DNA of 64,000 bases from Escherichia coli (GTDB lineage: Bacteria; Pseudomonadota; Gammaproteobacteria; Enterobacterales; Enterobacteriaceae), in assembly GCF_024502345.1 (NCBI RefSeq), contig NZ_JALDNN010000001.1; one strand, given 5' to 3'. This document shows positions 12,663-14,863 of this stretch, in pieces. Numbering within the stretch: the first letter of the stretch is position 1; every line of letters starts with the position of its first letter. The translations under genes and the position numbers were made by a program. The notes under the pieces are model-generated. The model was not told the origin of the DNA and did no database searches. It worked only from the letters and a program-made list of their open reading frames with translations.

Positions 12663-13061
12663 TCAGTAATCAAGATACTCTTTGATAGGACGGTTTTTAA
12701 ACTGCGTAGCATCTTTCTTCAGTCGATTAACCATTTCAAACTCCCAATCTTCTTTGTTCTGGCCTGCTGGACTGGTAGGGCTAACCATATGATTGTAATC
12801 AGTCATAAACTGAGGATTTCGAGCAATACGGCCAAGTTGCTTGTCATTCAAACCGTCTATAGTAAACATATCAGCAGTATCACCATCTCTTCGTGATTCT
12901 ATTGCTTTCTTAAGTTTGGGCTTGGGCTTAGCTTTGAATTTAAATGTAAACCCTACGATACTACGCCCCTCTTTATGTTGATCGTATTTGACAGTGATAT
13001 CTGTATGTAGATTAATCTGTTTAACAGCGAAATCCAGAACAAACTTTTTAAAATTACTCAT
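12663..13061 (-). CDS. hypothetical protein, possibly plasmid Rep-like fragment
   Basis: MSNFKK... 132 aa; motif TDITVKYDQHKEGRSIVGFTFKFK loosely recalls iteron-plasmid initiators; track ORF start (13106) lies inside IS5, so 5' end disrupted or ambiguous. Confidence 0.35.
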   Translation of the reverse strand: MSNFKKFVLDFAVKQINLHTDITVKYDQHKEGRSIVGFTFKFKAKPKPKLKKAIESRRDGDTADMFTIDGLNDKQLGRIARNPQFMTDYNHMVSPTSPAGQNKEDWEFEMVNRLKKDATQFKNRPIKEYLDY

Positions 13062-13091
13062 TGTTTTATACTGCGAAATCTCAACGCCTAA

Positions 13092-14286
13092 GGAAGGTGC
13101 GAACAAGTCCCTGATATGAGATCATGTTTGTCATCTGGAGCCATGGAACAGGGTTCATCATGAGTCATCAACTTACCTTCGCCGACAGTGAATTCAGCAG
13201 TAAGCGCCGTCAGACCAGAAAAGAGATTTTCTTGTCCCGCATGGAGCAGATTCTGCCATGGCAAAACATGGTGGAAGTCATCGAGCCGTTTTACCCCAAG
13301 GCTGGTAATGGCCGGCGACCTTATCCGCTGGAAACCATGCTACGCATTCACTGCATGCAGCATTGGTACAACCTGAGCGATGGCGCGATGGAAGATGCTC
13401 TGTACGAAATCGCCTCCATGCGTCTGTTTGCCCGGTTATCCCTGGATAGCGCCTTGCCTGACCGCACCACCATCATGAATTTCCGCCACCTGCTGGAGCA
13501 GCATCAACTGGCCCGCCAATTGTTCAAGACCATCAATCGCTGGCTGGCCGAAGCAGGCGTCATGATGACTCAAGGCACCTTGGTCGATGCCACCATCATT
13601 GAGGCACCCAGCTCGACCAAGAACAAAGAGCAGCAACGCGATCCGGAGATGCATCAGACCAAGAAAGGCAATCAGTGGCACTTTGGCATGAAGGCCCACA
13701 TTGGTGTCGATGCCAAGAGTGGCCTGACCCACAGCCTAGTCACCACCGCGGCCAACGAGCATGACCTCAATCAGCTGGGTAATCTGCTGCATGGAGAGGA
13801 GCAATTTGTCTCAGCCGATGCCGGCTACCAAGGGGCGCCACAGCGCGAGGAGCTGGCCGAGGTGGATGTGGACTGGCTGATCGCCGAGCGCCCCGGCAAG
13901 GTAAGAACCTTGAAACAGCATCCACGCAAGAACAAAACGGCCATCAACATCGAATACATGAAAGCCAGCATCCGGGCCAAGGTGGAGCACCCATTTCGCA
14001 TCATCAAGCGACAGTTCGGCTTCGTGAAAGCCAGATACAAGGGGTTGCTGAAAAACGATAACCAACTGGCGATGTTATTCACGCTGGCCAACCTGTTTCG
14101 GGCGGACCAAATGATACGTCAGTGGGAGAGATCTCACTAAAAACTGGGGATAACGCCTTAAATGGCGAAGAAACGGTCTAAATAGGCTGATTCAAGGCAT
14201 TTACGGGAGAAAAAATCGGCTCAAACATGAAGAAATGAAATGACTGAGTCAGCCGAGAAGAATTTCCCCGCTTATTCGCACCTTCC
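13092..14286 (+). mobile_element. IS5 insertion sequence (1195 bp)
   Basis: termini ggaaggtgcgaacaag ... cttattcgcaccttcc; flanked by 4-bp direct repeat CTAA (13088-13091, 14287-14290). Confidence 0.95.
13160..14140 (+). CDS. insH: IS5 transposase InsH
   Basis: [18 protein letters not shown]..., 326 aa. Confidence 0.95.
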
Positions 14287-14410
14287 CTAAGCGTTCTGAA
14301 AAAGATCGAGAGTTGCAACAGTGGGTGGCGAAACAGAGCCTGGCGGAATTATGTCGTCGTACCGGCAACTGCTGACCCGCTGAAAACAACCATAACAGGG
14401 AGTTTTTAAC

Positions 14411-14863
14411 ATGAATATATTTACTACGCGTCTGACGACCTCTCTGGTGGTCATCGGCACTCTGCTGCTCTCCGGCTGCGACAGCAAGGAAGATGCAGGC
14501 GTGAAGACGATTGCCCGATTTAAGGACCTGACTCCGCCGCCCTTCAGCGACGTGGTGGCGCATAAATCCGATATCGAGCAGGAATGGGTAAAAAAGGATG
14601 CCTTCGGCACACCGCTATACACGGTAATGAAAACTCGCCAGTCGCCGGAAGGCTGTGAGTCCGGCAGTTATTACTACATTGCTGATATGCAGCAGAAAAC
14701 GGTGCAGCCGCTGATAGCCGCCCAGTGTCTCGCGGACAATATTACTCTGAGCTTCCGGATCGAGACCGACAGCTACACGGGTGAGAAATCGGTGGTGTAT
14801 TCGCACTATGGCAAGGAAATGGGGAAACTCTTGCTGCCGGATAAGCAGGAGAACCATCCATGA
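14411..14863 (+). CDS. hypothetical lipoprotein (lipobox LLSGC, Asp at +2)
   Basis: 150 aa; signal peptide + lipobox; RBS aggga upstream; stop overlaps next start (ATGA). Confidence 0.7.
   Translation: MNIFTTRLTTSLVVIGTLLLSGCDSKEDAGVKTIARFKDLTPPPFSDVVAHKSDIEQEWVKKDAFGTPLYTVMKTRQSPEGCESGSYYYIADMQQKTVQPLIAAQCLADNITLSFRIETDSYTGEKSVVYSHYGKEMGKLLLPDKQENHP

Follow-up and report, generated by a model that had tools for sequence, protein, structure and literature searches.

An intact IS5 bordered on both sides by the same tetranucleotide and abutting a truncated plasmid replication gene raises the question of whether the element inserted into a contiguous gene, duplicating its target, or instead joins two segments of unrelated origin. 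The locus stands in a stretch of 64 kb of Escherichia coli DNA (the window), inside an island located between nfeF (yqjH) and the tRNA gene ileX, which is heavily decayed and reduced to a ~7-kb remnant.

The element itself is canonical. It covers 13092..14286 (+, 1195 bp) and ends with 16-bp terminal inverted repeats, GGAAGGTGCGAA(C/T)AAG, at 13092-13107 (+) and 14271-14286 (-), of which none is expected by chance. Its nucleotide identity to annotated copies in other E. coli is 100% over 1195 bp, the matching copies being annotated as 'IS5-like element IS5 family transposase' (1753 records with at least 99% identity). The ORF of the transposase gene ins5A (13160-14140, +; 326 aa, or 338 aa with a start at 13124) is intact, and the NCBIfam profile search retrieves a complete IS5-group DDE transposase (transpos_IS5_4, E 1.6e-109, 365.7 bits for a cutoff of 140, profile positions 1-285/285). 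The tetranucleotides at both edges are CTAA (13088-13091 and 14287-14290), fitting the IS5 target consensus YTAR (PMC5009759; PMC5493358 Table 3). The initial annotation had correctly recognized the element as IS5, its CTAA borders and the running of a minus-strand ORF into its terminus; this ORF, 12663..13106, extends 15 nt into the IS5 end.

The left flank: a plasmid-derived module and its repM remnant

On the left, IS5 is adjoined by a 1.63-kb fragment (11461..13091, -) that is 99.6% identical to positions 58-1685 of loci L005-L010. It includes a 72-bp 5' stub of a 318-aa gene (11461..11532, -, mapped from L005, where the gene stands at 1614-2570), a 76-aa ORF with a partial NDUS4-like domain (11680..11910, -; Pfam PF04800, E 1.1e-10; also called as a gene in L005-L011), a gene for a 234-aa protein belonging to no Pfam family (11894..12610, -; ATG at 12598, or 238 aa with TTG at 12610) and the 3' half of repM. 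Positions 11831-13091 are 99.8% identical to the Moraxella osloensis plasmid NZ_CP069435.1, and DNA 99.1% identical to the 234-aa gene occurs within heat-resistance (LHR) islands as well as on plasmids of Acinetobacter, Psychrobacter and Moraxella. Around the rep part, the GC content falls to 0.38-0.42, versus about 0.5 in the flanks. By its matches, the module is derived from a Moraxellaceae plasmid, is widely spread and appears to circulate on enterobacterial plasmids and islands; the plasmid-like origin suspected at the outset is thus borne out by this 99.8% identity, the module also being carried by Enterobacter plasmids.

The repM remnant (12663..13091, -) consists of codons 145-286 of RepM (142 aa plus stop), and 142/142 aa are identical to residues 145-286 of the M. 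osloensis RepM (286 aa). In the full-length protein, Rep3_N (WH1) covers residues 10-124 and WH2 residues 138-196, the cut falling at codon 145. The remnant, in which Rep3_N gives no Pfam match, keeps the C-terminal two thirds of WH2 (Rep3_C, E 6.4e-14) and a C-terminal extension without Pfam match. The annotated 132-aa ORF begins at internal Met155 of RepM (ATG at 13061, MSNFKK). A profile check on this product, as proposed in the initial annotation, did find Rep-family similarity and supports the resemblance to the C-terminal half of replication initiators claimed there: residues 1-42 match Rep3_C (WH2) at profile positions 18-59/59 with the same E value of 6.4e-14, and repM_Acin (NCBIfam NF038290) is matched at positions 182-293/304 with 89.3 bits, under the 250-bit cutoff, the full M. 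osloensis RepM scoring 301.2 bits against this profile. Because its score is below the family cutoff, the product is to be read as a gene fragment rather than as a family member able to function. Adding the 10 codons between the MSNFKK start and the IS5 end still leaves the first part of WH2 missing, and MSNFKK is not a native start, as the ORF extends further upstream in IS5-free homologues.

DNA for the RepM WH1 and for the region preceding repM on the Moraxella plasmid has no match anywhere in the window. No relevant tandem repeat or iteron array was found over 11300-14500, the promoter/terminator scan found no minus-strand promoter-like site over 12500-14500, and no Shine-Dalgarno motif is seen before the ATG at 13061. 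Compared with the iteron-type RepM/Rep_3 (RepB-family) initiators of Moraxellaceae (NF038290; Rep3_N and Rep3_C), the remnant has 142 identical codons but represents half of the protein, with WH1 absent, WH2 incomplete and no origin-type DNA upstream. RepB proteins of Psychrobacter and Acinetobacter are 60-75% identical to the retained 142 codons. Since, in the IS-free copies L014-L019, a stop codon already precedes the remnant, which begins near residue 100, WH1 was probably lost before the arrival of IS5, as judged from these other copies of the module. IS5 had been proposed to lie inside the 5' region of a Rep-like gene; such a gene is indeed truncated at the IS5 end, but the site abutted is codon 145/286, in a gene devoid of WH1 already in IS-free copies. 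The rep fragment would thus be a pseudogene, presumably unable to initiate replication.

The left CTAA (13088..13091) is native to repM, in which it reads TTAG in the Rep sense (codons L145-G146), and it occupies the same place in all IS5-free copies. These copies continue past CTAA as CTGCTTCC..., that is CTGCTTCCTGAAATTC... (RepM ...FELQNFRKQ), whereas the window continues as GCGTTCTGAAAAAG.... Five further loci from genome-species and metagenome scans all keep the native continuation; one carries an ISKpn26-like element 32 bp further on, and none carries IS5 or the hybrid. In other hosts, ISKpn26 copies adjoin the same remnant with partner flanks (CTAAttat.., CTAAgtac.. and TTAAaggg..) that all differ, which suggests that recombinant flanks are common for IS5-family elements at this module.

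The right flank: a decayed CP4-57-type island

To the right of IS5, positions 14287-15235 match, at 99.8% identity, a CP4-57-type island gene preceded in its native context by ...GCACTGGCAG. What remains of this gene is a 3' stub of 28 codons plus stop, KRSEKDRELQQWVAKQSLAELCRRTGNC* (14289..14375, +), belonging to a signal-peptide-bearing product of 211 aa. The translation of the stub agrees with the C-terminus of the annotated WP_000772020.1, and its DNA is 99.8% identical to locus L001. The right CTAA (14287..14290) is an original part of the island gene (GCA GCT AAG CGT), as it is found at positions 6001-6004 of L001, from an IS5-free genome. Each CTAA therefore belongs natively to its own flank. 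The right half, starting exactly at CTAA, has records in 74 genomes, at other island sites, for 5426 complete E. coli genomes searched; among the 40 matches listed for these 74 genomes, IS5 is absent from the right-flank CTAA.

The stub is followed by a YfjS/YafY-family lipoprotein gene (14411..14863, +; Pfam PF20494, E 1.4e-51), annotated likewise in L001. Going downstream from IS5, this is the first island gene to be intact, and it reads in the same direction as ins5A. On the opposite strand, a spurious 104-aa ORF (14249..14563, -) lies antisense to the beginning of the yfjS-like gene, then to the spacer and to what is left of the island gene, before it ends inside IS5. This frame had been taken for the displaced 5' end of the Rep-like gene, as it stays open beyond IS5. 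The arithmetic is right, since in-silico removal of IS5 and one CTAA (1199 bp) places 14249..14563 in frame, with a joint free of stop codons; the frame, however, is not Rep sequence, because the far side consists of an unrelated + strand island gene and then of YfjS/YafY.

The island has suffered further losses. Its integrase gene (int', 10761..11460, +) is reduced to the N-terminal ~233 codons (Arm-DNA-bind_3 and Phage_int_M in Pfam) and lacks the catalytic domain, so that no intact tyrosine integrase as expected of a CP4-57-type island is present, whereas CP4-57-type modules (YfjS/YafY, DUF4942) do stand beside a tRNA gene. The similarity of int' to intact nfeF-adjacent integrases ends at window position 11462, and int' is joined to foreign DNA at 11460/11461 with only a TA microhomology. 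The upstream island genes, i.e., a GTPase, an HTH regulator and most of the 211-aa gene, are deleted.

Origin of the joint

Identical direct repeats are the classic signature of a simple insertion and count against a recombinant IS joint, for which non-matching repeats would be expected, whereas CTAA stands here on both sides. However, as IS5 inserts at YTAR, the CTAA pair is weaker evidence than it appears, and a matching 4-bp repeat around IS5 is no proof of simple insertion. The chance that two unrelated IS5 flanks match was estimated here at roughly 10-25%, against 1 in 256. As both CTAA copies belong to the sequences in which they lie, the pair is accounted for by chance matching of YTAR sites. 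Both native sites share the 13-mer GCAG-YTAR-GCGTT, and it is conceivable, though very improbable, that IS5 recognizes an extended sequence context around YTAR. A crossover at this 13-mer was considered as a source of the joint and rejected, because the module is in the opposite orientation and the crossover would join the wrong halves.

IS5 is most likely the recombinant joint of two unrelated segments inside the decayed island, as its flanks are contiguous in no reference found and each CTAA is native; with the same good confidence, the rep fragment is held to be a pseudogene. A single IS5 stands between segments that are non-contiguous elsewhere, and left and right flanks derive from different sequences rather than being contiguous in IS-free relatives. 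The history would have involved two IS5 copies. One would have inserted at TTAG/CTAA within the already defective repM remnant of the module, and a second at CTAA near the 3' end of the CP4-57-type island gene. The two copies would then have recombined, or an IS5-mediated cointegrate would have formed and later been deleted, leaving a single hybrid IS5 with one native CTAA per side. A separate illegitimate joint at 11460/11461, with its TA microhomology, would have removed the rest and fused the stub of the 318-aa gene to int'. Unit transposition of the module fragment together with IS5, using a surrogate end at 11461, was also considered and discarded, neither an IS5-like end nor a YTAR at 11457-11460 being found.

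The intermediates of such a history were sought in several collections. The in-silico IS5-free junction was found at 80% coverage or more in 0/5426 complete E. coli genomes, and the IS5-free hybrid ...CGAAATCTCAACGC-CTAA-GCGTTCTGAAAAAG... in none of these genomes nor in the genome-species and metagenome scans. Neither the actual IS5/right-flank junction nor the int'/module junction is present in the 5426 genomes, so that no ancestral or sister arrangement was recovered from that collection. The reciprocal joint (IS5 right end, CTAA and CTGCTTCC...) was retrieved neither by the protein-database search nor by the genome and metagenome scans, a protein search with the N-terminal part of RepM fused to the IS5-end frame yielding only distant Acinetobacter RepB fragments. 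No ancestor with two IS5 copies appeared in the genome collection or the scans, but as short-read contigs break at IS5, the absence of intermediates is weak evidence. All assemblies carrying the locus (L020-L022) already show the final arrangement, one being 100% identical over 5.4 kb.

Simple insertion into one contiguous Rep-like gene, with duplication of CTAA and 14249-14563 as the displaced 5' part, was the initial reading. Although it agrees with the repeat on both sides and with the in-frame, stop-free minus-strand ORFs obtained after in-silico excision, it is refuted by the flank alignments and retains next to no credibility: the far side matches, with 99.8% identity, the + strand island gene that precedes the lipoprotein gene, every IS5-free copy has ...SIGKTPKFELQNFRKQ as the RepM sequence before the cut and not ...CCNSRSFSER, and the WH1 region with its upstream DNA is missing from the window. 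The module might instead have joined the island gene at the shared CTAA, through a 4-bp microhomology, before IS5 struck this CTAA and truly duplicated it. The direct repeat is perfect, the hybrid site would have symmetric flanks (AACGC-CTAA-GCGTT), and illegitimate events did occur at the locus, since an illegitimate joint with a 2-bp microhomology bounds the fragment at its opposite end (11460/11461). Nevertheless, this order of events is very unlikely, as the adjoining 2.6 kb offers 24 YTAR sites, of which IS5 would have had to hit the only one at the joint, the microhomology would itself have had to be a YTAR, the IS5-free hybrid is absent from all collections searched, and a choice of both native sites by IS5 accounts more easily for their 13-mer likeness.

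Two further readings concern function rather than origin. The truncated rep ORF might be a working gene transcribed from IS5, with a product of 132 aa, or 147 aa for a start inside the IS5 end, acting for instance as a DNA-binding competitor of RepM plasmids. Its ORF is intact and identical in >100 public contigs, where RefSeq labels it a RepB-family protein, homologues show strong conservation over the C-terminal ~70 aa, and the 3' part of the gene was spared by four different IS events in different hosts. However, the identity across hosts (about 99.6-99.9% in DNA) reflects recent spread and not purifying selection, translation would begin midway through the WH2 fold (profile position 18/59), neither a Shine-Dalgarno motif before ATG 13061 nor a minus-strand promoter-like site is present, an Enterobacter roggenkampii variant has the remaining WH2 deleted too, and every IS event has eaten into the gene from one and the same side, a pattern that follows if what survives is simply its far end. 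A working gene is thus highly improbable. Even harder to credit is the idea that the 3' half, which adjoins IS5-family elements in >100 enterobacterial contigs and was spared by four independent IS events, would be kept as an expressed WH2 and C-terminal protein competing with incoming RepM-type initiators, i.e., as an exclusion or incompatibility determinant. The second reading makes IS5 mainly a mobile promoter, read-through from ins5A driving co-oriented yfjS-like genes left without their own upstream operon. For fucAO, expression by transcripts that begin at the ins5A start site and read out of the element has been documented (PMC11894529); here, ins5A and the yfjS-like genes all lie on the + strand, no terminator-like site was found on this strand over 14140-14411, and the deletion upstream took away the GTPase, the HTH regulator and most of the 211-aa gene. 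As the main role of the element it is rather unlikely, because, when no activator site is provided upstream, the native ins5A promoter is very weak (PMC11894529, PMC11677980), and no such site was identified in the rep fragment; it is moreover compatible with a recombinant joint rather than an alternative to it. The genes that IS5 might drive, if any, would be the + strand yfjS-like candidates and not the divergently oriented rep fragment.

Comparison with known systems and annotation of the locus

IS5 is the IS most often implicated in IS-by-IS deletions in E. coli, with 52/98 events (PMC5009759). The locus resembles the joints described there (Lee et al. 2016, PMC5009759) in the element itself (1195 bp, 100% identical, YTAR flanks) and in the lone IS left between non-contiguous segments, as described for recombination between two IS5 copies. 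It differs from them in that both half-sites carry the same tetranucleotide, so that the joint looks like a simple insertion, and in that one partner segment is foreign plasmid-derived DNA, because of which cointegration with a later deletion and simple deletion from the chromosome are equally likely. With the IS5-activated operons glpFK, bglGFB and fucAO (PMC5493358, PMC11894529), the locus shares a CTAA site, an IS5 placed upstream of and co-oriented with the genes, and downstream genes lacking their own upstream region. Unlike these operons, the locus shows no sign of selection for activation, no activator site was identified ahead of the IS5 5' end, and the downstream genes are only candidates for activation.

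The locus amounts to commonplace debris of mobile elements that public assemblies already annotate, and its significance beyond annotation hygiene is slight. Where the 132/147-aa ORF bears the RefSeq-style name 'RepB family plasmid replication initiator protein', the name designates a dead fragment and not a replicon, and no integrated plasmid or satellite should be deduced from it. The locus does offer a clean case of Moraxellaceae plasmid DNA, at about 99.8% identity, within enterobacterial chromosomes and plasmids.

Among CP4-57/CP4-6-type islands (yfjS/yafY, cbtA-cbeA, DUF4942), the aspV island of other strains is 99.8% identical to the right flank, and the YfjS/YafY and DUF4942 genes are present here as well. 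By contrast, about 5.5 kb of the aspV island is missing internally, int' is truncated in the ~7-kb remnant and IS3 is located in the DUF4942 gene. This IS3 (15719-16976), in the same island, is a clean insertion flanked by an ATTC repeat, the DUF4942 gene being contiguous on both sides.

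The two flanks of IS5

An IS5 element (13092-14286, 1195 bp) was delimited by its terminal inverted repeats, whose only two matches in the 64-kb window lie at the IS5 ends, and by its 100% identity to annotated IS5 copies of many E. coli genomes; its transposase ORF is intact. CTAA immediately abuts the element at both ends. The minus-strand ORF 12663..13106 extends 15 nt inside the IS5 end and, after deletion in silico of IS5 and one CTAA, the minus-strand ORF 14249..14563 falls in frame with it through a stop-free joint. These observations of the initial annotation are confirmed, whereas its interpretation is partly supported.

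The 132-aa product of the left ORF was correctly described as Rep-like. It matches Pfam Rep3_C, the WH2 domain of Rep_3 initiators (E 6.4e-14, profile positions 18-59 of 59 only), and NCBIfam repM_Acin (positions 182-293 of 304, 89 bits for a cutoff of 250), and the homologues retrieved from databases (60-75% identity) are RepB/Rep_3 initiators encoded by small plasmids of Psychrobacter, Acinetobacter, and Moraxella. The suggested plasmid origin also holds, as a plasmid search identified the Moraxella osloensis plasmid NZ_CP069435.1 as the source, with DNA 99.8% identical to window 11831-13091. Its RepM counts 286 aa, with Rep3_N (WH1) spanning residues 10-124 and Rep3_C residues 138-196. Residues 145-286 of this protein are encoded without a difference by the 142 codons remaining in the window, MSNFKK starting at the internal Met155; repM thus breaks off midway through WH2. 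RepM-type proteins are better conserved among homologues over their C-terminal ~70 aa (MFTIDGLNDKQLGRIARNP...RPIKEYLDY; in the 132-aa ORF, residues 65-132, window 12666-12869) than over WH2. This part matched no Pfam family and is called alone, as a 68-aa ORF, on 313 public contigs.

On the other side, window 14287-15235 is 99.8% identical to the CP4-57-type island at aspV of other E. coli. The match starts exactly at CTAA, within a 211-aa signal-peptide-bearing gene (WP_000772020.1) that natively reads ...GCACTGGCAG-CTAA-GCGTTCTGAAAAAG... at this site. Its last 28 codons and stop persist as a stub (14289-14375, plus strand), followed by a YfjS/YafY lipoprotein gene. The frame 14249-14563, which terminates within IS5, runs antisense to the stub, to the intergenic spacer, and to the first part of the lipoprotein gene; it encodes ...CCNSRSFSER where real RepM copies read ...ELQNFRKQ upstream of the cut. 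It was ruled out as the displaced 5' end of the rep gene because its residues are not those of RepM and it is antisense to island genes; it is a chance ORF. The claim of a single insertion into a contiguous Rep gene continuing beyond IS5 fails as well, since the flanks are unrelated and the far side is the CP4-57-type island.

Origin of the CTAA pair

Over window 11461-13091, identity reaches 99.6% with a travelling module in which the repM remnant is accompanied by a 234-aa gene, a 76-aa NDUS4-like ORF, and a 318-aa gene. Copies of the module are found on many E. coli draft contigs, the Enterobacter asburiae plasmid CP135262, a chromosomal island beside ychF/pth, metagenome contigs, and Enterobacter roggenkampii plasmids carrying an EptA-family (MCR-like) phosphoethanolamine transferase gene. 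The IS5-free homologous loci sought after the initial annotation were found: upstream of MSNFKK and of the cut, all of them read ...AAGTTTGAGCTGCAGAATTTCAGGAAGCAG-TTAG-GCGTTGAG... in the Rep sense, giving the protein ...KFELQNFRKQ-LG-VE.... An exact pattern scan returned one genome-species locus and four metagenome loci, all with this native continuation. TTAG (CTAA on the window plus strand) is native to the module, and each CTAA is native to its own flank, the two flanks being unrelated. In IS-free module copies (L014-L019), a PIN-domain gene and a resolvase gene lie upstream, and the rep frame opens only at about residue 100 (SQQFTSYELEQ...), after a stop and unrelated DNA. WH1 was therefore probably lost before any IS event, as judged from these copies rather than from that of the window.

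The targets that IS5 duplicates are YTAR sites, and in E. coli mutation-accumulation lines it takes part in IS-by-IS deletions more often than any other IS (PMC5009759); its ISfinder target counts are mostly CTAG, CTAA, and TTAG (PMC5493358). Given this preference, two independent half-sites match fairly often, by chance in an estimated 10-25% of cases. The most likely history is one in which an IS5 copy stood at each of the two native sites; these copies would have recombined, either as direct copies with loss of the DNA between them or by way of a plasmid-chromosome cointegrate trimmed later, and left a single hybrid IS5. Among 5426 complete E. coli genomes, neither the IS5-free junction built in silico (0/5426) nor the actual IS5 junction was found; the final arrangement occurs in several draft assemblies, one of them (L021) 100% identical across 5.4 kb. 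In other hosts, ISKpn26 copies abut the same rep remnant, and their far-side sequence differs in each. The feature is an IS5 recombination scar beside a plasmid-gene pseudogene, of a known kind and already annotated in public assemblies.

Both native target sites share GCAG-YTAR-GCGTT, with the central tetranucleotide alone inverted (window 13083-13091 and 14287-14295; native 4101-4146 in the Moraxella plasmid locus and 5997-6009 in the aspV island of strain PCP06171), so that the window flanks are palindromic, AACGC-CTAA[IS5]CTAA-GCGTT. The motif is absent from the rest of the window and from ~400 kb of other loci. A 9-bp inverted repeat, AACGCCTAA...TTAGGCGTT, is present in native repM as well; at its two arms, ISKpn26-like elements have inserted in other hosts and IS5 in the window, and IS1 lies 5 bp away in a third host. 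The shared 13-mer and inverted-repeat sites may stem from a local IS hot spot or from an extended target preference and would then be consistent with two independent IS5 insertions, or may be a coincidence noticed post hoc.

Function and expression

Nothing in the sequence suggests a working rep fragment. It begins within the WH2 fold and lacks both WH1 and the upstream region of the Moraxella plasmid repM; no iteron-like repeats were found near it, no promoter-like site on its (minus) strand, and, on inspection, no Shine-Dalgarno motif ahead of the ATG at 13061. Its perfect conservation between hosts accompanies DNA ~99.6-99.9% identical and thus indicates recent spread, not selection. Transcription driven by IS5, also proposed, is impossible for the rep fragment, as it lies upstream of and divergent from ins5A. 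It could apply to the yfjS-like genes, which are co-oriented with ins5A and whose own upstream operon is gone. At fucAO, transcripts that begin at the ins5A start site and read through have been documented (PMC11894529), but the ins5A promoter is weak without an upstream activator (PMC11894529, PMC11677980).

Island remnant and module neighbors

IS5 and the rep fragment are housed in a ~7-kb genomic island remnant of the E. coli chromosome, bounded by nfeF and ileX. The pair nfeR/nfeF (yqjI/yqjH) occupies 8834-10509, and ileX, a tRNA with CAT anticodon (17553-17628), is followed by mug and rpoD. The truncated integrase (10761-11460) sits at the nfeF end, oriented inward, and ileX at the opposite end, adjoining DUF4942. 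In tRNA-associated islands, the integrase normally abuts the tRNA, making this layout unusual. The integrase ends at about codon 233, fused at 11460/11461 to the first 72 bp of the 318-aa gene; this joint, at the end of the foreign fragment away from IS5, is an illegitimate one with a microhomology of just TA. In other strains, the nfeF-adjacent integrase precedes very different cargo, such as dha/propanediol genes in 730V1. Compared with the PCP06171 island, ~5.5 kb is absent at window 15235-15368, where DUF4942 follows the 150-aa gene downstream of yfjS; the lost genes include those for DUF4339, IrmA, DUF932, antirestriction, RadC, and YeeU/CbtA, among others. Identity to that island is only 72% over the DUF4942 part, and the remnant is therefore a mosaic. 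IS3 (15719-16976, 1258 bp) interrupts the DUF4942 gene with ATTC on each side, and the Pfam profile runs contiguously from one gene half (15340-15718) into the other (16977-17450); unlike IS5, it is a clean simple insertion.

The 234-aa gene (11894-12610), whose product matched no Pfam family, is 99.1% identical to a gene within the heat-resistance locus LHR (5001-5690 in L002/L003), where it is flanked by the two partial pieces of a single hypothetical gene, with a mechanosensitive-channel gene adjoining. LHR (hsp20-GI, yfdX1/2, hdeD-GI, trx-GI) occurs on plasmids and chromosomes of E. coli, Klebsiella, Salmonella, Citrobacter, and Enterobacter, and the 234-aa gene is also found, at at least 99% identity, on Acinetobacter, Psychrobacter, Moraxella, and Pseudomonas plasmids. 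On the Enterobacter roggenkampii plasmids CP187108.1 (L011) and CP096189.1 (L012), an ISKpn26-like element lies 160 bp deeper in the remnant (10001-10339), and the coding sequence of the annotated 112-aa 'protein' is partly IS end. On CP187108.1, the EptA-family (MCR-like) gene adjoins a tyrosine recombinase gene within ~6 kb. Two metagenome contigs (L034 and L037) carry, close to the site of the pattern match, a further repM truncation, joined at ...CCTATAGG; the joined sequence resembles the GGGGTCGGTACAGAATTCGGA motif directly upstream of the Moraxella plasmid repM, which may be iteron-like.
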